Shown one piece after another: positions 15,942 through 31,038 of a stretch of 31,038 nucleotides of DNA. The position numbers and the translations under genes are program-made. Location of the stretch: NCBI GenBank assembly GCA_014905635.1, contig JABVCE010000002.1:2728001-2759038 (forward strand), given 5' to 3'. Origin of the DNA: Scenedesmus sp. PABB004. Lineage: Eukaryota. Below the pieces are notes generated by a model, which saw nothing but the letters and a program-made list of their open reading frames with translations, was not told the origin of the DNA and ran no database searches. Position 1 is the stretch's first letter. Every line of letters begins with the position of its first letter.

Positions 15942-16605
15942 CCATTATATACGGCGCGGCGGCGCCGGGACTCGCGTGGCTGCAGCGCCCGCGGCACACG
16001 CGCGTGCGCGCACCCTCCTCCCACACAGCGCGCCGCCGCGTGCCGCAGGGAAGCCGGCGCTTGCGACGGAGCATGCAATCTCGCGTGAGCGCGGCAGGCC
16101 GGCTGTGCCGTCGCCACCTGAGCGTGCTGGGGCCATTATATACCCCGCCGCCGCTGCCGGCGCGCGACGCAGCCCCGCTGGCCGGCGCCGGCGTGGCGTG
16201 GGAGGGCCGGGGCGACCGCTGGCGAGCGCGGCGGGCGGCCGGGCGGGGGCGGGCGCGGGCGGGTCGGCCGCCCGAGCGCGCGTGCCGCCGCGCATGTGGC
16301 GACGACGACGACCTGGCCACGCGGTGCCCCAGTGCGAGCGTGACACGTCACGGCGCGTGATGCTGCTCCGAGCCCCGAGGGGTGGGGCTCAAGGCTAGGC
16401 CCGCTGCGCTCTCGCTGTGACGCTCCCCCGCCCGGCGCAGCGGACACATTCGCGAGCGACGCCTTCCCGTGCCCCAGACCACCCTGCAGCCAGCGCGCCC
16501 GCCCTCCTCGCTCGGCCCCATGGCCCGCGTCGCTTGCGCCCCCCGTCCGCCGCCGTAGCGCGGCCACCGTGTTCAACAGCGGGAGCGACGACGGGCGCGG
16601 GCAGG

Positions 16606-18415
16606 ATGGCCGCGCTGGCCGCGAGCGTGCCCCGCTGCGCCGAGCAGGACCCCTGCCTGCCCAACGGGCCCTGCCTGCACGCCCACGAGAGCGCGTGTGC
16701 CCAGGGAGCCCTGGGCGCGGCCGCCACAGCGAGCCAGGTGCGGCACGGGGGCGCGGCGGGCCCGCGGGCGCGGCATACCGCGGGCCGCGCGCCGCAGCGC
16801 CCTCACGCCGCCCCGCCGCGCCGCGCCGCGCCGCAGGTGTATCGCTGGGACTTCAATGTCTTCGAGTTTGCGCGCAGCTGCCGCGGCAAGCCCCTGTACA
16901 GCGTGACAATGGCACTGCTGGAGGACCAGGGCCTGCTGGTGCGCGGCGCGGCCGCGCAGCCCCCCGCCGCGCGCGCCCCGCCCAGTGGCGCGCCGCGCCC
17001 GGGCGTGTGCCGCGCCGCGGCGCCGCAGCGCCGCGGCCGTGGGGCGCGGGCGTGCGCGCGCGCGCGGGGCAGCAGCGCCGCCGCTGCTCGCGGCGCGCGG
17101 CGCGCGCGCCCTTCAGCGCATTGGCGCGCGCGGCGCCGGCGCTCACGCGCGCCGCCGCCCCCGCCGTGCCGCAGGACGGCTGGCTGCTGGAGCGGCGCAA
17201 GGTCGAGGCGTACCTGGCCGAGGTGGAGGCCATGTACAAGCCAAACCCCTACCACAACAACACGCACGCGGCCGACGTCACGCAGACGTCGGGCGTCATC
17301 ATGTGCGCGCTGGACCGCTTCCTGCGCAGCCCGCGCAGCAGCAGCCGGAGCAGCAGCAGCGGCAGCAGCCCCGGCCGCACGAGCAGCCAGCAGAGCAGCG
17401 GCGCGGCGCCGGCCGGGCAGCCGCCCGCGGGCGCGCCAGGCGCCGGCAGCAGCGGCGCCGCCGCCGCCGAGGACGACGGCCCGGGGCTGAGCAAGCTGGA
17501 GCGGTTTGCGATCATCCTCGCGAGCGCGGTGCACGACCTGGGCCACCCGGGCGTGAACAACGCGTTCCTCATCCGCACGCGCAGCCCCGCGGCGATCACC
17601 TACAACGACCGCAGCGTCAACGAGATGATGCACGCCAGCCTCGCGTTCCAGCTCGCGCTGCAGGACGACGACCTCAACATCTTTGCCGCGTTCGACCAGG
17701 AACAGTACGAGCTGGTGCGCGGGCGCGACGCGGCGCGGCGCGGCGCCCCGCGCGGCGCGCCGCGGCCTGCTGCGCAGCGCCGCCGCCGCGCGCGCGCGCC
17801 GCGCGCAGCGCCGCGCTCAGCGCCGCGCCCGCCTGCCCCGTGCCGCCGCAGGTGCGCAAGCTCGTGTGCGAGATGGTCCTGTCGACCGACATGGACGTGC
17901 ACTTTGCGCTGCTCAAGCGCTTTGACGAGGGCGTCGCGGCGACGCCGGACGTGCGGGACTGGCGCAGCGTGGAGGGGCGCAGCCTGCTGTTCCAGATGCT
18001 CGTGCACCTCGCCGACCTCGCAAACCCCAGCCGGCCGTGGCCCCTCGCGCTCACGTGGGCGGAGTGGGTCGTCACCGAGTTCCTCGGCCAGGGCGAGCGC
18101 GAGGCGGGCGCGGGCATCCCCGTGAGCGACCCCTGCAACGCGGCCAAGGTCTGCATGCCCGCGGCGCAGCTCTTCTTCATCGAGCGCTTCATGCAGCCCA
18201 CGCTGGAGACGTTCCGCCCCGCCGCGCCCGCGTTCTACGCGCTCGCCGCGCCCTGGCTCGCCGACACCAAGGCGCGCTGGGGCAGCTTCAAGGACGCCGG
18301 CGTCAAGCTCCCGCGCAGCGCCTACCCCACCCTGCCCGCCGGCGAGCCGCGCCTGTGCGCCGTGCTGGAGGGCTGCCAGGCGCCCGGGGGCGCCTGCTGC
18401 TGCATGCGCCAGTAG
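16606..18415 (+). CDS. Class I 3',5'-cyclic nucleotide phosphodiesterase (~445 aa). Exons 16606-16737, 16837-16938, 17175-17714, 17852-18415; start codon uncertain
   Basis: WDFNVF, NPYHNNTHAADV, HDLGHPGVNNAFL, YNDRSVNE, LSTDM, HLADLAN, EFLGQGERE and the invariant Gln in QLFFIE. All introns are GT-AG. Confidence 0.95.
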
Positions 18416-22832: not shown

Positions 22833-23668
22833 CTCGTGGTGCGGCGGTGTGGTTGAGGGCCGGCACGTTTGCATTGGGTTTTTTTGTGCGCGAAGCTCGC
22901 GCTGCAAGCAGCGGCTTGCATTGAAACTGGCGGATCCGTCCACACTGCCCGCTGCGCGCTGTGTTGTCGGCGCGCTGCTCGGGTCGAGAATAGTGCAGTT
23001 GGTGAGTCGCAAGCTGGTTGGTTGCTCGCAGAACTTGGCGGGACTGGCGCGGGTCCCTGACGCGTGCGGCTGCGGTCCCGCAGCAGAGCCCGGCCGCCGA
23101 GGCCGGGAGGCCACTCGCACGGCTGAGCTCAGCCGCGAGACTCGAGGCGCCAGCCTGCCGGCCGCCCCAGGGTGGAGGCAAGGCACTGCAAATGTTGCCC
23201 ATGCCCTGCATTGACTGTTGAGGCGCCTGCCAGCACAGGCGTGCTGCGCACTCTGGCGATTGAGCTGGCCGCTGTGCACAGGCTGCAAACTGGCCACGGC
23301 ACTAGCAGTTGACAGCTTAGCTTTGGCGCGCCTGGCCGGGCGCTGGGCGGTGCGCGCTGAGCAGCGGCCCCGACGCGCGTGCGCTGCAACATGACCCACA
23401 CGCCGCGGGCGCCACAGCCAGGAGCAGCAGCACGGAGCCACCGCAGCATCGGCTGCCGTGTGGTTGGTGTGGTGATCCCGCCCCCTCGCCCTCGCCCGCG
23501 GCGCAGCGCGGCCCCGGAGACGCGGCGCCGAGACGCGGCGCGCGCCGCCACCTGCCGCCCCGCGCCTTTGCCCCACCAATCTCCCCTCCCCGCCGACCGC
23601 ACCCGGACGCCCGCCCGACGCGCCCGCCCGCCCGCGCCCGCCTGCCACACGCGCGAGCAGCGGCCACG

Positions 23669-25191
23669 ATGCAGGCGTTCGCCAGCGCCCGCGCCGCCGG
23701 CGCGACCAGCAGTCGCGCCGCGGCGCCATCGCGCCGGGCAGTGGCGGGCAATGCACACGCGCCCCGCGCGCCGGCGGGCGCCCTGGCCGCGCGCCCCGCG
23801 CCGCGCCCCAGCGCGCAGCGCGCGCTGCGCCGCAGCCTGGTCGTGGCAGCAGGTGGGCGCCGGAAATCCCACCACACCGCCGCGGCGCGGCCGGCCGGCG
23901 CGGCGTGGGGGCGCCGGGGCGGCCGACTGATGGATTGCGATGCGGCCACCCGCGCCCCCCACCGACGCGCCCCGCCCCGCGCCGCAGCGTTCTCGCCTCC
24001 CACGGTGGCTGACACCAAGCGCAAGTTCGTGGAGGCCTACAGCCGCCCCATCCCGGCCATCTACAACACCGTGGTGCAGGAGCTGCTGGTGCAGCAGCAC
24101 TTCATCCGCTACGGCATCAACTACAAATACAACGCGGTGAGCAGCCGCCGCCTGCGCCCGCCGGCGCCGCCGCGGCGCTGGGCGCACGGCGCGCGGGGGA
24201 CAGCGCGGCGTCGGCGGCAGCGGCGGGCCGCGCAGCTTGCGGCACCCGCGCGCTTGCAGCCGGGAGCCGGCGCTGCGCGCACGCCTTGCGCGGGCGCGCA
24301 GGCGCGCTGGGCACCGCCGGCGACACTGCCGGCGCGCCGCCCACGCCGCCCCGCCCGGGCGCCCGCCCGCGCGTCGCGTCGCGCGCGTGCGGCAGGTGCA
24401 CGCGCTTGGCTTTGTGAGCGTGTTTGACCAGATCCTGGACGGCTTTGACGGCGGCGACAAGGAGCTGATCTTCACCTCCTACGTCAACGCGCTCGGCGAG
24501 GACCCCGCGCGCTACAGGGTGCGGGAGAGGGGCGCTGCACTGCGCGCGCCGCGCCGCGCGCGCCGTGCGGCCTCTGCCAGGCGGCGGGGCGCGTTGCCGC
24601 GCCGCTGGGCGCGGGCCCCGCGCTCACTGCGCTCACCGCGCTCACTGCCGCGCGCGGGGTGCCGCGCACGGGGTGCCGCTGCAGGCGGACGCTGAGAAGC
24701 TGGAGGCGCAGGCGCGCGGGCTGTCTGGCCCCGACGGCCTGGTGCCGGACGCGGCCGGCAGCGAGCTGCAGGCGGCGCTGGCGGAGGTGGCAGCAGCCAC
24801 GCAGGCCGGTACCTTTGCGTACAACCGCTTCTTCGCGGTGGGGCTGTTCAGGTGCGCGCGCGCAGCGCGCAGCGGCGGCGGCGGCCGGCCGCTCGTGCGC
24901 TCGCGCAGACGCCTGACGCCGCGCCTGCGCACGCGCGCCGCTGCGCTGCGCAGGCTGCTGGAGCTGACGGGCGCCAAGGAGCCGGCGGCGCTTGAGAAGC
25001 TGGTCAATGCGGTGGGCGTGGCGCCTGCGTCTGTGAACAAGGACCTGCTCATGTACAAGGGCGTGCTGTCCAAGCTCAGCTCGGCCAAGGAGATGATGCG
25101 CGACTTCCTGGAGCGCGAGCGCAGGAAGCAGCAGGAGAGGGAGGCGGAGCGCGCGGCCAAGGAGAAGGCCGAGGCGCCCGCGCAGGCGTGA
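23669..25191 (+). CDS. THF1: THYLAKOID FORMATION 1 / Psb29, chloroplast-targeted (~286 aa). Exons 23669-23852, 23988-24136, 24396-24518, 24685-24851, 24954-25191
   Basis: Ala/Arg/Ser transit peptide, then PTVADTKRKFVEAYSRPIPAIYNTVVQELLVQQH, ALGFVSVFDQ, ALGEDPARYRADA, YNRFFAVGLFRLLE, VNKDLLMYKGVLSKL. Confidence 0.95.
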
Positions 25192-25517
25192 GGGGGCCGG
25201 GCCGCTGGGGGACCTGGGGTGCAGCGACGGGCGCCGGGCCTACGCGCTGTGCACGTGCAAGACACACACTTGCAGGCGTGTGCGGCGGAGTTGCGCCGCA
25301 GCGCGGCGCCGGCGCAGGCGCGCGGCAGAGCGCGCAAGCTGCGGCGCGCGCGCATTTTCTTGTTTGCGGGGCGCGGCCGCCCAGTTTTCACCCTCGCGGT
25401 GCGCTCCGACCGCGCTCGGGATTGGCGTGGCGCACACGGTGAAGAATCGGACTCGGTTGAGTAACCGCCTGGCCGTGACCCGGCCGCGCCCGCCTGCGCA
25501 GCCGCCCGCCCGCTGCA

Positions 25518-27577
25518 TCACCAGTCGCGCGCGTCGCCAAAGCCGTCGTGCTCCGCAGCAGCCGCCGCACTCGGGGCCTGCCGCCGCTTGGCCTGCCCGC
25601 TGCGCCGCGAGCCGCCGCCCACTGCGCCGCCGCGCCTCCGGGGGCCTGCCGGCAAGGCTTTGGACACCCCGCCGCTGGGCGCGCCAGGCAGGCCGGCCTG
25701 CCGTGGCGTCCCCGCGCGCGGGGCGGCGAGCTGCTGCTGCGGGCCGCTCCAGAGCACAGCGCCGGGCGCAGACGCAGCCGCGCCGCCGTGCGCGCCGCCG
25801 CCGAGGCTGGCGGGCAGCACGCTGCAGCGCGAGTCCTCGACGACCACTGCGCAGGGCAGGCCGCGGGGCATCGCAGGTCAGCACAACTCGTGCGCGCGAG
25901 ACGAGGCCGAGCGCGCAGCAAGCCGTCGCGCGGCGCGGCGCGCACCTGAGCGCCGGCCGGGGACCAGGCGGCCGCCGCTGGCGCTTGGCATGGCCTCCTG
26001 CACCTCCCGCAGCACGAGGGTCCGCCCGACCGCCGCGCCGCGCCCCGGGGCGCCCCCGCCGCGCAGCGTATGTGTGACCGTCATCTTGCTCACCACCAGC
26101 CGCCCGCGCCGCGCCGCGCCGCCGCTGCGGAGCCCCTCCGCTGCGGCGCCCACGCCCTGCTGTGGCGCGTGCTGGGGCACGTGCACGGCGTGGTGGCTGC
26201 CAGGCTGGCACGGCGCGCCGCGCGGGTCGGGGTCGTCCGGCTCCTCCACGATGTAGGCCTGCCCGGGCGGCAGCCGCGCCGAGCTGGGGGCCTGGTGGGG
26301 CGGCGCCAGCAGGGTCGCGCACGTGGCGGGCAGCGCTGCCGCCTGCCGCGGGGCAGGTGCCGGGCCCAGGGCTTGGATGGTCTTGGCGAGGCTCTGCAGC
26401 TCCTGCCGCTTGCGCGCGACCTCCTGCTGCCTGTGTTGCAGGGTGGTTGCTGCCCTCGTGAGGGCAACGTCCTGCGCTGCGATGCTGGGAGGTGGCGTAG
26501 AGGGTGGCAGGGCGGCAGGCAAGCGTGACACGCGGCCGCGCTCGACCGGCGCGTGCAGGCGCCACCACCGTCACCGCGCCGCCACCTGCACACCACCGCA
26601 CGCGCTCACCTGCACTGCATGCTGCGCAGCTGCGCCTCGCGGTCCGAGATCTCACGCCGCAGCCTGGGCAGCTGCGCCCCCGGTCCCTCGCTGCTTGCCT
26701 GCTCCAGCTGTGCCAGCAGCTCGCTGCTGCTGGCTGACTCTGCCGCGATTCGCTGCTGGAGCTCTGCGGCAGCGGCGGGCGGCACATGCGCGCAGTGCGC
26801 ACCGCCCCGCTGGCGCGGACGACGCTGCCAGCGCCGCCGCCGCTGGCGGCGTGACAGGGGGACGCTGCCACGCAGCCGCACCCACCTTGGACGCAGGAGC
26901 GCGCGTCCGCGACCTGCTGCTGCAGCTCCTCCGCAGCAGCCGCCGCCTGCGCGGTTTGCTTGCGCGCCGCGAGCGCGCGCTTGGCAGCGTCGTGCGTGCG
27001 GCTCTGCGCGGCGTCCGCCTGGCGCGCGACGGCGGCCTTACGCTCCGCGATCTGCTCGGCGCCAAAGCTGGCCGCAAAGGCGTCCGCGCGGGCCTCACAC
27101 GCGTCCACCAGCGCGTGCGCAGCCTGGTGCAGCTCTGCGACGTCGTCCTGCATGGGCGAGGAAGCGGCGCGCGTTGGCGGCGGCGCGCACAGGCGACGGC
27201 GGTGACGGCGCGCCCCTGGCGGCACGGCGCGCTGGCCGTCGGCTGCGCCATCGCGCGGCAGGGCCCCGGAGCCGCGCGCCGCGTTAGCGTGAGCAGCGCG
27301 CCTGCAGGCGCTGCTTGCGCGCGGCCGCGGTCGCTGCCTGCTCGGCGAGGCAGTCCCGCAGCGCCGCCAGGTCGTCCTGGCCGTCCTGCTCCGCGTGCAG
27401 CACGGCGCGCGCCTCCGCCGCCTCTGCCAGGAGCGCGCGCGTCGCGGCGCGCCGCTCTGCGCAGCGCTGCCGCAGCTGCGCGCAGAGCAGCAGATCGCCC
27501 CTCACGCGGCCGTCCAGGCCGTCGAGACCGGTCTGGACTGCCGCTAGAGCGGCGCTGAGCTTGGCGAGCTGATTCAT
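25518..27577 (-). CDS. Hypothetical protein with a long N-terminal coiled coil and disordered C-terminus (~519 aa). Exons 27577-27302, 27147-26886, 26763-26610, 26484-25946, 25846-25518
   Basis: Four phase-consistent introns (first is GC-AG) join heptad-like A/E/Q/L/R-rich segments. No family recognised. Confidence 0.65.
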
Positions 27578-28048
27578 TCGGCCGCTCGCACGCCGCTGCT
27601 GTTGCTGCGGTCCCGAGCCTGTGCGGCTGCGATTGCGGTGCCGGCCGGCGCCGAGACGCGGTGCGTTGGCAGGATGTGTCTGGGTCCAGCCGGGGATAGG
27701 GGCGGCGCTTGTGGGCGCCGCGGCGGCGCGGCGCGCGCCCAAACCGCAGACCCCGACCGCCGCTCTGTCTGTCGCCGAGCGGTGCCCTTGCCGTGCTCAT
27801 TGAGCTTTGAATTCGAGTGGCTAACCACACGCGGCCAGGACCGGCTGCTCAGGGCGCCCTGCAGCCCGCGGCGCTGCGCGAAGCCGCCCGCTGACCGCCT
27901 CTCCGCCCCGCCTGCACGGCCACCGGCTGGCAACAGCGGCAGGCTCTTGCAGATTAAGGCGCTGCAAACGATCAGCTTCGAGCGACCGCAGGCCGCCAGG
28001 GCCCCCCCGCTGCGCTGCGCGCCGCCGCAGCAGCGCCGGTGTCGCAGG

Positions 28049-30657
28049 ATGGCACGCAGGGCTGCCGAGTCCTGGATGTGGCAGGTCTACAGCCACACGG
28101 TGCGGTCAGGCCCTTCGGCACGCCCTGGGAGCGCGGCGCGGCGCCGCCGCTGCCCAACGCCGCCGCACGCCGCGCCGTGCGCCGCCGTGCAGCGCGCGGC
28201 GAGCCCGGACTCGCTGTTCACCTACTTCAGGGGCGCGGCGCGGGGGGAGGACCTGACGGTGAGGCGCTGCAGCGCGTCCAACGGCGGCGCGGCTGGCTTG
28301 CGCCCGCTGCCGGCACCGACTGCCCGGCCGGCGCGCGCGCCGCCTGCGCCGCGACCGTGCCGCGGCCGTGGTCAGGCCGACATCATCAACATGGTCAGCG
28401 CCGCGGTCAAGGCGGTGCTTCCGCCGGGCGGCGCCACGCTGCACGCGCTCGAGGAGGACGGCGGCGCGGGCATGGAGGCGGCGGCGTGCGCGACGTCCCT
28501 CTACTACACGTGCGAACTTGCGCACGGCTGCGCACCTCAGGGCGCAGCACGGGCGGCCGGGGCGCCGCACGCGGCATGGCGCGCGGGGTCGGCCCTCATA
28601 ACCCTGCCGCACGCCCGCCGGCGCCCGCCGCGCTCGCAGCGTGGCGGAGCACCTGCTGCGGCAGCTCTTCCCCCTCGTGCCGCCGGCCACCGGCGCCGGC
28701 CGGTTCAAGGGGCTGGTCAAGGCGCCCGCCGACCCCGCCTGCCACGAGCTGGTGCGGTGCGAGGAGTTCCACCTGCCCCTGGTCGAGGTGGCGCTGCACC
28801 TGGTGTCCCTAGTCGCCGGCCGGGGCGGCCCCGACGCGACCGACATGCTGCAGCGCGGCGCCCACGCGCCGTCGCTCTGGCAGGCGTGCCGGTGCGCGCG
28901 CGGCGGCGCTGCGCCGCGGTGGCCCCCGCGGCGACGGCAAGCCGCAGCCCCGCTCCAGCCCTGGCAGCACCAGCTGGCGTGTGCGCTCCTGCGTCGCCGG
29001 CACTGGGGGCGCGCGCCCGCACTGCGCGGACCGCCTGCCGCCGCCGCTGCCGCCACGCGCGGCGTGTGCGCAGGAGCTTCCAGGAGTGCTTTGGCGCCGA
29101 CAGCCCCTGGCCGCTGCCTGCTGAGCTGGACCTGGAGCTGCAGCGCATGCAGGACTCGCTCCTGGACGCGCGCGCCCTGGCCTCAGGCTCGCAGCTTTTC
29201 AGCATCCTCGTGCAGGGTGCGGCGCCGTGGCGCGCCCACGGGCTCGCCTCGCCGCCGCCGCTGGCGCAGCCGTCGCCGCGTCCGCACGTGACCGCTGCTG
29301 CGTCACCTGCCGCGCGTGCAGGGGGCGGCGCGCACTTCAAGCCCGGGGACGCCTCGCTCGCCGGGCACGTGCTGCAGGCGTATGCGCACCGGGTGCGCGC
29401 CGCCGAGACCCGCGGCCAGGGGTACTCGCCGGACGCGCTGATCAGCGCGTCCGGCGAGTGAGCGCGCCTGCGCAGCACGTGCTGAGGGCTGACTGCCGTG
29501 CGCGCTTCGCGCCGCCGCCGCAGGCGATCAGCCGAGCCCAGATGGCCGGCTGGCAGGTGCTGCAGGGCGCGCTGGCGGCGCCCGAGCAGCCCGCCGCGGC
29601 GCGCGCGCTGCATGAGCAGTGCGCGTGGGTGATGGACCGCCTGCTGATGGAGCACCTCGACCTCTGCTTCGGTGGGTGGCGGGCGGGCGGGGGGAGGGCG
29701 GCCGCCGCGCCCAGCGGCGGCGGCCTGCACCCGCAGCGCAGCCCGGCCCCCGCTCACCCGGCACGCCATGCGCGCGGTGGGCGCGCCCCCGCCCCGCTCA
29801 CACGCTGGCCTGCAGGCCAGCACATGTCGGTGGTGGTTGCGTGCGTCGTGTACGTGGTGGCCAAGGTCGCGCGGCTGAGCGTCACGTTCCAGCGCATCAC
29901 GGAGGCGCGCGGCGCCGCGGCGCGCGGCGCACGCTGATCGCGCGATCGCTCAGCGGCCGCGTGCCGCGGCCAGCTCACGCGCGCGCCCGCTGTTTGCTGC
30001 GTGTCCGCGGCCAGGTGCTGGCGCGCGACGGCACGCCGCCCGACGTGTTTGAGCGCGCCGAGCTGCACTTTGAGCCCGTCGCGTCGCGCCAGCGCCGCGG
30101 CGACGTGAGGACGTTCTACAACACACGGTGCGCGCCGCCGGCGCCGGCGCGTGACCATGCGGGAGGAGGGGCAGCAGTGCGCGCCTCGACCCACACGGGC
30201 GCGCCCGCTGGCGGGCGCCGCGCCCTCGGCGCGCAGCTGGCCCAGCCTCAGCAGCCGTGGCGTCGCCTGCGCGCCCGCGCGCCGCCGCAGGTTCCTGCCC
30301 GCCGTGGAGCGCAGCGTGCACGCGTACCTGCAGAGCTACGCCGCAGCCGGCGACGCCGCGGCCGAGGAGGAGACGGCGGGCCTCGCGCCGAGCGGGGACG
30401 CGGCGACGCCGCGCGCGCGGCGGGGCGGCAGGCAGCCCCTTGCGCGCGTCGACGCCAACTCGCAGCCGCTCGCCGGCGCGCTGCTGCCGAGCGGCGCTGC
30501 CAAGGCACCGGGCGGCGAGCGCGCGCGCACGGCGCCCGCGCCGGCGCGCGCCCGAGGCGGCGTGGTCAGCCCGGGCTTGTTCATGTTGAGCGGCGCGGCG
30601 CCGCCGCCCGGGGGCGCGCGGCAGCCCGGCTTCTCGCCGGCACGCACGATGCGCTGA
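28049..30657 (+). CDS. Divergent retinoblastoma-related (RB/MAT3-like) pocket protein with A and B boxes only (~477 aa). Exons 28049-28099, 28193-28258, 28376-28509, 28640-28891, 29074-29216, 29322-29392, 29524-29671, 29816-29904, 30015-30127, 30291-30657
   Basis: RB_A-like blocks: ATSLYYTVAEHLL, LVRCEEFHLPLVEVALHLV, LPAELDLELQRMQDSLLDARALASGSQLFSIL. RB_B-like blocks: LLMEHLDLCFGQHMSVVVACVVYVVAKVARLSVTFQRI and GDVRTFYNTRFLPAV. The exons sum to 1434 nt in frame. A short extra 5' exon is possible. Confidence 0.82.
29424..29459. repeat. Perfect 36-bp palindrome with no loop, in intron 6 of the RB-like gene
   Basis: ACTCGCCGGACGCGCTGA|TCAGCGCGTCCGGCGAGT is its own reverse complement. Confidence 0.97.
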
Positions 30658-30661
30658 GCGC

Positions 30662-30666
30662 TGTAA
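30662..30666 (+). promoter_or_regulatory. Putative chlorophyte polyadenylation signal TGTAA for the RB-like gene
   Basis: TGTAA begins 5 nt after the stop codon. UGUAA is the established poly(A) signal in Chlamydomonas and relatives. Confidence 0.6.
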
Positions 30667-30700
30667 GCGTGCCGCGTCGGTGCTGAGCGGCCCCGCTCGA

Positions 30701-31038
30701 GGGTTAGGGTTCTAGGTTTTAGTTTTTAGGTTTAGATTTTAGGGTTAGGTTTTAGGTTTAGGTTAGGTTTTAGGTTTTAGGTTTTAGTTTTAGGGTTTAG
30801 GTTTTAGGTTTTTAGGTTTAGGTTTAGGGTTTAGGTTTTAGGGTTTAGGTTTTAGGTTTTAGGTTTAGGTTTTAGGTTTTAGGTTTTAGGTTTAGGGTTT
30901 AGGGTTTAGGGTTTAAGGGTTTAGGGTTTAGGTTTTAGGGTTTAGGGTTTAGGGTTTTAGGGTTTAGGGTTTAGGGTTTAGGGTTTAGGGTTTAGGGTTT
31001 AGGGTTTAGGGTTTAGGGTTTAGGGTTTAGGGTTTAGG
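30701..31038 (+). repeat. Telomere: proximal degenerate variants (TTAGG, TTTAGG, TTTTAGG, TTTTAGGG) grading into (TTTAGGG)n
   Basis: G-rich strand runs 5'->3' to the end of the window, the correct orientation for a right chromosome end. Confidence 0.97.

Follow-up and report, generated by a model that had tools for sequence, protein, structure and literature searches.

A pocket-only retinoblastoma-like gene beside a telomere of the green alga Scenedesmus sp. PABB004

Gene structure at the chromosome end

The stretch of DNA analysed here (the window) comprises 31,038 nucleotides (nt) of Scenedesmus sp. PABB004 (assembly GCA_014905635.1, contig JABVCE010000002.1, positions 2,728,001 to 2,759,038 of the forward strand) and is about 78% GC throughout. 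Its last gene, at 28049-30657 on the plus strand, encodes a member of the retinoblastoma (RB) family that is reduced to the A/B pocket (residues 1 to about 390) and a disordered basic tail of about 85 residues. The gene is real and intact. We rebuilt its 10-exon model independently from GT/GC..AG splice-site candidates, and the resulting coding sequence of 1434 nt gives 477 amino acids (aa) and a stop, in agreement with the intact ten-exon open reading frame (ORF) of about 477 aa proposed in the initial annotation. The spliced translation is identical, letter for letter, to a database protein found by a search with exon 4 (P0001 below), whose NCBI name is 'RBR1 [Scenedesmus sp. PABB004]'; thus, GenBank already holds the gene model, as RBR1.

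The exons, all on the plus strand, map onto the pocket as follows. Exon 1 (28049..28099, aa 1-17) supplies the ATG and the first A-box helix, with model residues 1-8 aligning to human RB 380-384. It is followed by exon 2 (28193..28258, aa 18-39), exon 3 (28376..28509, aa 40-84), which includes a conserved LYY, exon 4 (28640..28891, aa 84-168), which encodes the core helices of the A box, and exon 5 (29074..29216, aa 168-216), with which this box ends. The GGG..GD linker and the first B-box helix come from exon 6 (29322..29392, aa 216-239), and the B box continues through exon 7 (29524..29671, aa 240-289). Exon 8 (29816..29904, aa 289-318) contains the LxCxE-cleft residues Y301 and K305, exon 9 (30015..30127, aa 319-356) contains Y353 and N354, and exon 10 (30291..30657, aa 356-477) encodes the last B-box helix, the disordered basic tail and the TGA stop. 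Between the exons lie nine introns of 93-182 nt. Eight are of the GT-AG type, with donors resembling G^GTG(C/A/G)G and acceptors ending in CAG^ (the caret marks the splice boundary). The remaining one, intron 8 (29905-30014), is a GC-AG intron with the boundary GAG^GCGCGC, and its junction is confirmed by the gap-free ITEVLAR / ITQLLAR alignment with the closest relative, P0002, with which the exon junctions are colinear. GC at codon positions 1, 2 and 3 of the coding sequence is 0.76, 0.55 and 0.95, respectively, and the introns have a GC fraction of 0.83. When single-frame genomic translations were compared with Pfam, only a sub-threshold fragment of RB_B (15.5 bits) was recovered.

Telomere repeats begin 42 nt beyond the stop codon, and the gene is therefore, as initially suggested, the last one on the chromosome. 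The array of TTTAGGG and its variants occupies 30700..31038 (339 bp), with the G-rich strand reading 5' to 3' as far as the window's last base. The units near the gene are irregular (TTTTAGG, TTTAGG), and the distal ones are perfect TTTAGGG. Given this proximity, the 3' untranslated region can hardly be longer than about 40 nt if it is to end before the telomere. In green algae TGTAA serves as the poly(A) signal, and a candidate for it lies on the plus strand at 30662..30666, 5 nt past the stop.

An RB pocket with A and B boxes

The initial annotation described an RB_A box followed by an RB_B box and proposed to check the spliced protein with Pfam hidden Markov models (HMMs). The outcome of that check was divided. 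RB_B (PF01857) matches residues 267-361 with 34.6 bits, above the gathering cut-off of 26.9. RB_A (PF01858) gives no match even at E 10, nor does any other Pfam family up to that value, including DUF3452 (PF11934, RbN). The lack of an RB_A match counts against a complete pocket; the A box is backed by profile and fold evidence. Over residues 6-458 the alignment with P0002 (E 8.6e-56) is colinear, and P0002 itself matches both RB_A (residues 10-220, 42.4 bits, cut-off 25) and RB_B (residues 236-375, 53.4 bits). Moreover, a profile made from 13 proteins of the clade described below matches the human RB pocket with E 4.9e-12 over both A and B, and matches chains consisting of the A domain only at E of about 2e-4.

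The structural evidence leads to the same conclusion. The AlphaFold2 model, obtained with a 91-row alignment, has a predicted local distance difference test score (pLDDT) of 81.9 and a predicted template modelling score (pTM) of 0.79, with residues 1-395 ordered and residues 396-477 disordered. Of the 24 Foldseek matches at E<=0.001, the 18 listed are without exception RB or p107 pockets. Using VIA-align, we could superpose model residues 2-412 on residues 380-786 of the human RB pocket (Z 28.5, root-mean-square deviation 3.3 A, 319 residues), so that both cyclin-fold lobes, A and B, find their counterparts; the structure prediction thus bears out the expected pocket. It also follows from this superposition that the protein starts at the first A-box helix. 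The A domain alone (1AD6) matches model residues 1-201 with Z 14.3, and the B domain alone (1GUX_B) matches residues 227-376 with Z 15.6. In the ESM Atlas, all ten of the best named matches are RB families, and the Atlas model aligns over residues 1-415. We conclude that the protein is a true RB-family pocket made of A and B boxes.

Since cyclins and TFIIB share the fold of the individual lobes, the similarity to them deserves comment. Each lobe of P0001 is a cyclin fold and matches cyclins K, T and D with Z 8-9.9; however, these values (the best non-RB chain being cyclin K, Z 9.9) are far below those for RB, and only the RB family fits the relative orientation of both lobes. By comparison, the pockets of human RB1 and p107 (PDB 1N4M, 3POM, 4ELL, 4YOZ) match with Z 26-28.5 over about 310-320 residues, despite a sequence identity of only 15-18%.

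The human proteins also share with P0001 the Tyr, Lys and Tyr-Asn of the LxCxE-binding cleft. The initial annotation had recognized these residues in the motifs VYVVAK and FYN, where they correspond to Y301 and K305, and to Y353 and N354, respectively. All four align with the corresponding cleft residues of p107 and RB, which in human RB we take to be Y709, K713, Y756 and N757, and they are kept in 12, 12, 13 and 13 of the 13 clade sequences. The wider set of Y301, K305, F313, R350, Y353, N354 and F357 is likewise conserved in 12-13 of the 13 rows. Such conservation of the cleft argues for the binding of LxCxE-type partners.

Lack of the N-domain, the spacer and most phosphorylation sites

Natural human RB1 and p107 have an N-domain of about 370 residues, a phosphorylated spacer of 65-200 residues between the boxes and a structured or regulated C-domain. 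In contrast, P0001 starts at the A box, has an ordered link of about 11 residues and shows no match to Rb_C (PF08934). The absence of an N-terminal domain, already noted in the initial annotation, agrees with the start of the fold at RB residue 380 and with the lack of DUF3452 both in the protein and in the ORFs upstream. The joint between the boxes, initially put at 10-15 residues, comprises residues 216-226 in the model; this block has pLDDT 95-96 and contains no Ser/Thr-Pro (S/T-P) site, and there is no long spacer. In this respect P0001 resembles the matching PDB chains, in which A is also joined to B by a short link. These chains (about 330-360 residues for RB 380-786) are, judging from their lengths, presumably spacer-deleted crystallisation constructs. 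As for Rb_C, only one of the seven canonical RBs found in our search showed this domain, and weakly at that; therefore, the Rb_C model appears to be insensitive outside animals.

Could the N-terminal exons simply have been overlooked, by us as well as by the annotators of RBR1? A CAG^G acceptor-like site lies directly before the ATG, and the frame upstream of it stays open for 167 codons. Yet the upstream in-frame stretch (27548-28048; GC at the three codon positions 0.71/0.69/0.79) has no coding signature, and the only upstream in-frame ATG, at 27674, would add 125 codons that lack it too. Further upstream, a divergent ORF begins 471 bp away. This head-to-head neighbour, which the initial annotation had placed about 470 bp upstream, has its minus-strand ATG at 27577. 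Its first ORF (27287..27577) reads as 97 aa of coiled-coil-like sequence, and the neighbour as a whole (25243-27577, minus strand) gives an Ala/Gln/Glu-rich, coiled-coil-like reading on which no Pfam family was matched. Its assignment to the minus strand rests on residue make-up, because the signal from GC at the third codon position (GC3) is no weaker on the opposite strand; a gene scan with GC3 windows proved too crude at 78% GC. The region between the two genes (27578..28048, 471 bp), which would hold both promoters and 5' untranslated regions, shows no coding signature. Beyond the neighbour, the unrelated Thf1 gene ends at about 25.2 kb, and none of the 75 ORFs read from stop to stop over the interval 16.3-28.8 kb matched DUF3452 at E<=0.01. 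The relatives tell the same story. In a 13-row alignment the conserved Trp of the first A-box helix lies 7-61 residues from the N-terminus in 10 rows; the other three, P0029, P0013 and P0061, lack part of the stretch of this helix. With the fold beginning exactly at RB residue 380, a truncated gene model is very improbable, and on the evidence of the sequence and the relatives there appears to be no room for an upstream N-domain.

Cyclin-dependent kinase (CDK) sites are few as well. P0001 has six S/T-P sites, one of which fits S/T-P-x-K/R, compared with 14-23 in the eight canonical algal and plant RBs covered by PMC8533097.

A clade of algal RB-like proteins without the N-domain

To place P0001 among its relatives, we used an exhaustive phmmer (HMMER) search of 1.84 billion representative proteins at E<=0.001. 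It returned 91 proteins, 30 of them at E<=1e-10 and four, the query included, at E<=1e-30. The longer hits are of two kinds: canonical RBs, and a clade in which the pocket begins no more than about 70 residues from Met1. The seven canonical hits (P0071, P0072, P0074, P0079 and P0085-87; phmmer E 8e-5 to 5e-4) match RB_B with 71-131 bits. Five of them also have full-length RB_A (140-208 bits), P0072 matches it only in part (32 bits) and P0074 not at all; DUF3452 is present in P0085-87. Among 13 clade proteins examined with Pfam, DUF3452 is found in none. RB_B is detected at E<=0.01 in 10 of them, and only five reach the gathering score. P0016, P0021, P0040, P0024 and P0029 score 21.1-25.7 bits, below the cut-off of 26.9, and P0005 matches no Pfam family. 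Nevertheless, P0016, with an RB_B score of 21.1 bits, folds as a full pocket (Z 27.5) that begins at about residue 51; behind it lie about 270 disordered tail residues. Several of these proteins fall below the Pfam thresholds and so escape domain-based annotation; algal genomes therefore probably contain more members of the family than have been counted.

In a quick IQ-TREE phylogeny, 18 clade rows are separated from seven canonical rows by a long branch with an SH-aLRT (Shimodaira-Hasegawa-like approximate likelihood ratio test) value of 100. P0001 groups with P0005 and P0092 (SH-aLRT 98), which are Rsub_02349 of Raphidocelis subcapitata and J3K34DRAFT_518208 of Monoraphidium minutum, both annotated as 'hypothetical' and with no Pfam family recorded. 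These nearest named relatives have the same N-less, short-linker pocket, but differ from P0001 in having longer disordered tails (698-752 aa in total) and a KEN motif. Raphidocelis and Monoraphidium belong to the Selenastraceae and are also very GC-rich, and the composition of P0005 and P0092 was flagged as unusual. The grouping with the Selenastraceae may reflect either true affinity or shared composition.

The clade is recognizable by several common features, all of which P0001 possesses: a pocket within about 70 residues of Met1, the GGG..GD linker, a basic C-terminus, and the motifs QH.SV..AC..Y..AK and R.FYN..FLP. P0001 therefore belongs to a conserved green-algal RB-like subfamily represented by Scenedesmus sp. 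PABB004, Raphidocelis subcapitata, Monoraphidium minutum and many unnamed members, and its short form is not a one-off, being the conserved architecture of a whole algal clade. A C-terminal Arg is present in 14 of 15 clade proteins. S/T-P sites are few throughout the clade, numbering 1-12 in its other members and 10-21 in the canonical hits, or, per 100 aa, 0.15-1.49 (15 clade proteins) versus 1.16-2.53 (seven canonical hits).

The tails are more variable. A single tail KEN, of the form (D/S/E)KEN, occurs in nine of the 15 clade proteins (P0002, P0004, P0005, P0092, P0016, P0021, P0024, P0029 and P0061) and in none of the seven canonical hits; P0001, whose tail is among the shortest of the 15, has none. 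Several clade tails also contain a stretch resembling R(R/K)L.V..DD(D/E). The KEN and R(R/K)L-type stretches may represent degrons or cyclin-docking motifs. The lack of KEN and of most of the relatives' tail, together with a telomere only 42 nt away, might be taken to mean that the Scenedesmus gene is a subtelomeric copy without function, either decaying or silenced. We find this hardly credible, as all ten exons join at consensus splice sites into an intact ORF with a GC3 of 0.95, all clade-invariant residues are kept and the predicted fold is confident.

Comparison with MAT3-type proteins

The canonical chlorophycean RBs, Chlamydomonas MAT3, Volvox RBR1 and Gonium RB, resemble P0001 in having an RB pocket and a basic extreme C-terminus and in coming from multiple-fission green algae. 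MAT3-type proteins have at least 1,000-1,200 residues, 14-20 S/T-P sites and about 400 residues before the A box (PMC8533097), as opposed to 477 aa, six S/T-P sites and no N region in P0001. Table S3 of PMC8533097 gives the positions of S/T-P sites in Chlamydomonas, Gonium and Volvox MAT3; they begin at about residue 20-50, and the last ones are at 1201, 1020, 1099 and 971. Each MAT3 in that table has a TP(I/V)SE site at 409-430. Five of our canonical hits match RB_A completely, and in each of them a T-P site marks the exact start of the match; we therefore read TP(I/V)SE as the likely start of the MAT3 A box. With about 400 residues before the pocket in MAT3 and 0-70 in the clade, it follows that the clade is not MAT3-type. 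None of the MAT3 site contexts printed in Table S3 was seen, by eye, in the printed clade sequences, and the 91 phmmer hits include no volvocine protein of MAT3 length.

According to Fang et al. 2006 (PMC1599770), the Chlamydomonas RB, E2F and DP genes are single-copy, and the cell-cycle table of the Gonium paper has MAT3 only. In the one full-text library searched, neither an algal RB without the N-domain nor a second algal RB turned out to have been described.

Possible role beside a canonical RB

Taken together, the properties of the protein suggest that it would most likely act as a pocket scaffold or repressor. Its partners would be bound through the strictly conserved LxCxE cleft, E2F/DP would probably be held in the groove between A and B, and the usual CDK switch would have been escaped. 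Indeed, with the N-domain, the equivalent of the human T373 site and the phosphorylated spacer all missing, this switch probably cannot run in the usual way. Some CDK control may nevertheless persist, because six S/T-P sites remain, of which those at 395, 449 and 471 lie in the tail. The initial observation is thus confirmed and its interpretation supported in part: the pocket, the lack of an N-domain and of a long spacer, the retained cleft and the few CDK-type sites are borne out, and the second RB, the fast evolution and the decoy role proposed there are suppositions.

We favour, at about even odds, the reading that such a protein works beside a canonical MAT3-type RB, as a paralog. Some observations weigh against coexistence. 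No second RB of this alga was seen in the searches that return names, and annotators named this very protein RBR1. The genome of the alga (39.8 Mb, 7,092 genes, 78.5% GC) is described as smaller and more contracted than any other of its family (PMC12571836), and loss of the canonical RB is therefore conceivable. The opposite view, that P0001 is the sole RB of this alga, or of the Sphaeropleales, would make it a MAT3/RBR ortholog that has shed its N-domain and spacer while keeping the canonical job of E2F/DP repression and size control. Besides the NCBI name and the strong genome reduction (PMC12571836), this view draws on the intact pocket and LxCxE cleft and on the basic C-terminus of the clade (..RR....R), which, compared by eye, resembles the extreme C-terminal RRQRTP.R(R/K) site of volvocine MAT3 (PMC8533097, Table S3) and hints at descent from a chlorophycean RB. 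No other RB of the organism came up in three name-returning searches; however, their candidate lists were crowded by low-complexity words, making this poor evidence of absence. A long and fully supported branch separates the clade from all canonical RBs, and a clade sub-group of six representatives has the make-up typical of GC-rich, probably chlamydomonad-type algae, whose MAT3 has the N-domain. We regard a sole RB as the less likely of the two readings.

The paralog reading, extended to the whole clade, leads to a broader proposal, which we put forward tentatively. Chlorophycean algae, possibly including Chlamydomonas-type models, may carry an overlooked second, pocket-only RB-like family that lacks the N-domain, the spacer and most CDK sites and has a tail KEN box in most members. 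The KEN box would suggest control by proteolysis dependent on the anaphase-promoting complex/cyclosome (APC/C) rather than by CDK phosphorylation, and the family could have gone unnoticed because many members score below the Pfam RB_A and RB_B thresholds. If so, the picture of an algal size-control pathway with a 'single RB' would be incomplete.

On either account the protein is of interest. A natural pocket-only RB shows which parts are dispensable: this one does without an N-domain, without a spacer and without the phosphosites by which human RB is switched off. The similar short proteins of related algae suggest that the RB family has a branch as yet undescribed. As the sole RB of the alga, it would be a minimal RB in which pocket function could be dissected. 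Were it to coexist with a MAT3-type RB, it would be an unstudied second player that could compete for LxCxE partners (D-cyclins, chromatin factors) or for E2F/DP.

Genomic surroundings

Two further genes could be identified upstream on the plus strand: a 3'5'-cyclic nucleotide phosphodiesterase gene at 16344-18412 (PF00233, two exon-frames, E of about 2e-27) and the thylakoid-formation gene Thf1 at about 23321-25188 (PF11264, three exon-frames). The E2F-type motif TTSSCGC is not enriched in the window (31 matches versus 54.9 expected), and the region between the RB-like gene and its divergent neighbour has one match, at 27876-27882.

Three freshwater metagenome contig sets were compared with the gene. 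Most matches are GC-rich stretches of 35-40 nt, accompanied by a few identical pieces of 150-240 nt, and they are uninformative on gene structure or expression. At 27440-27905 and 28981-29288 there are a few identical or near-identical pieces of 150-534 nt, and one contig, about 93% alike, has 63 extra bases at 27577. Given these near-identical pieces, the alga or its close relatives seem to be present in the freshwater samples at low depth.

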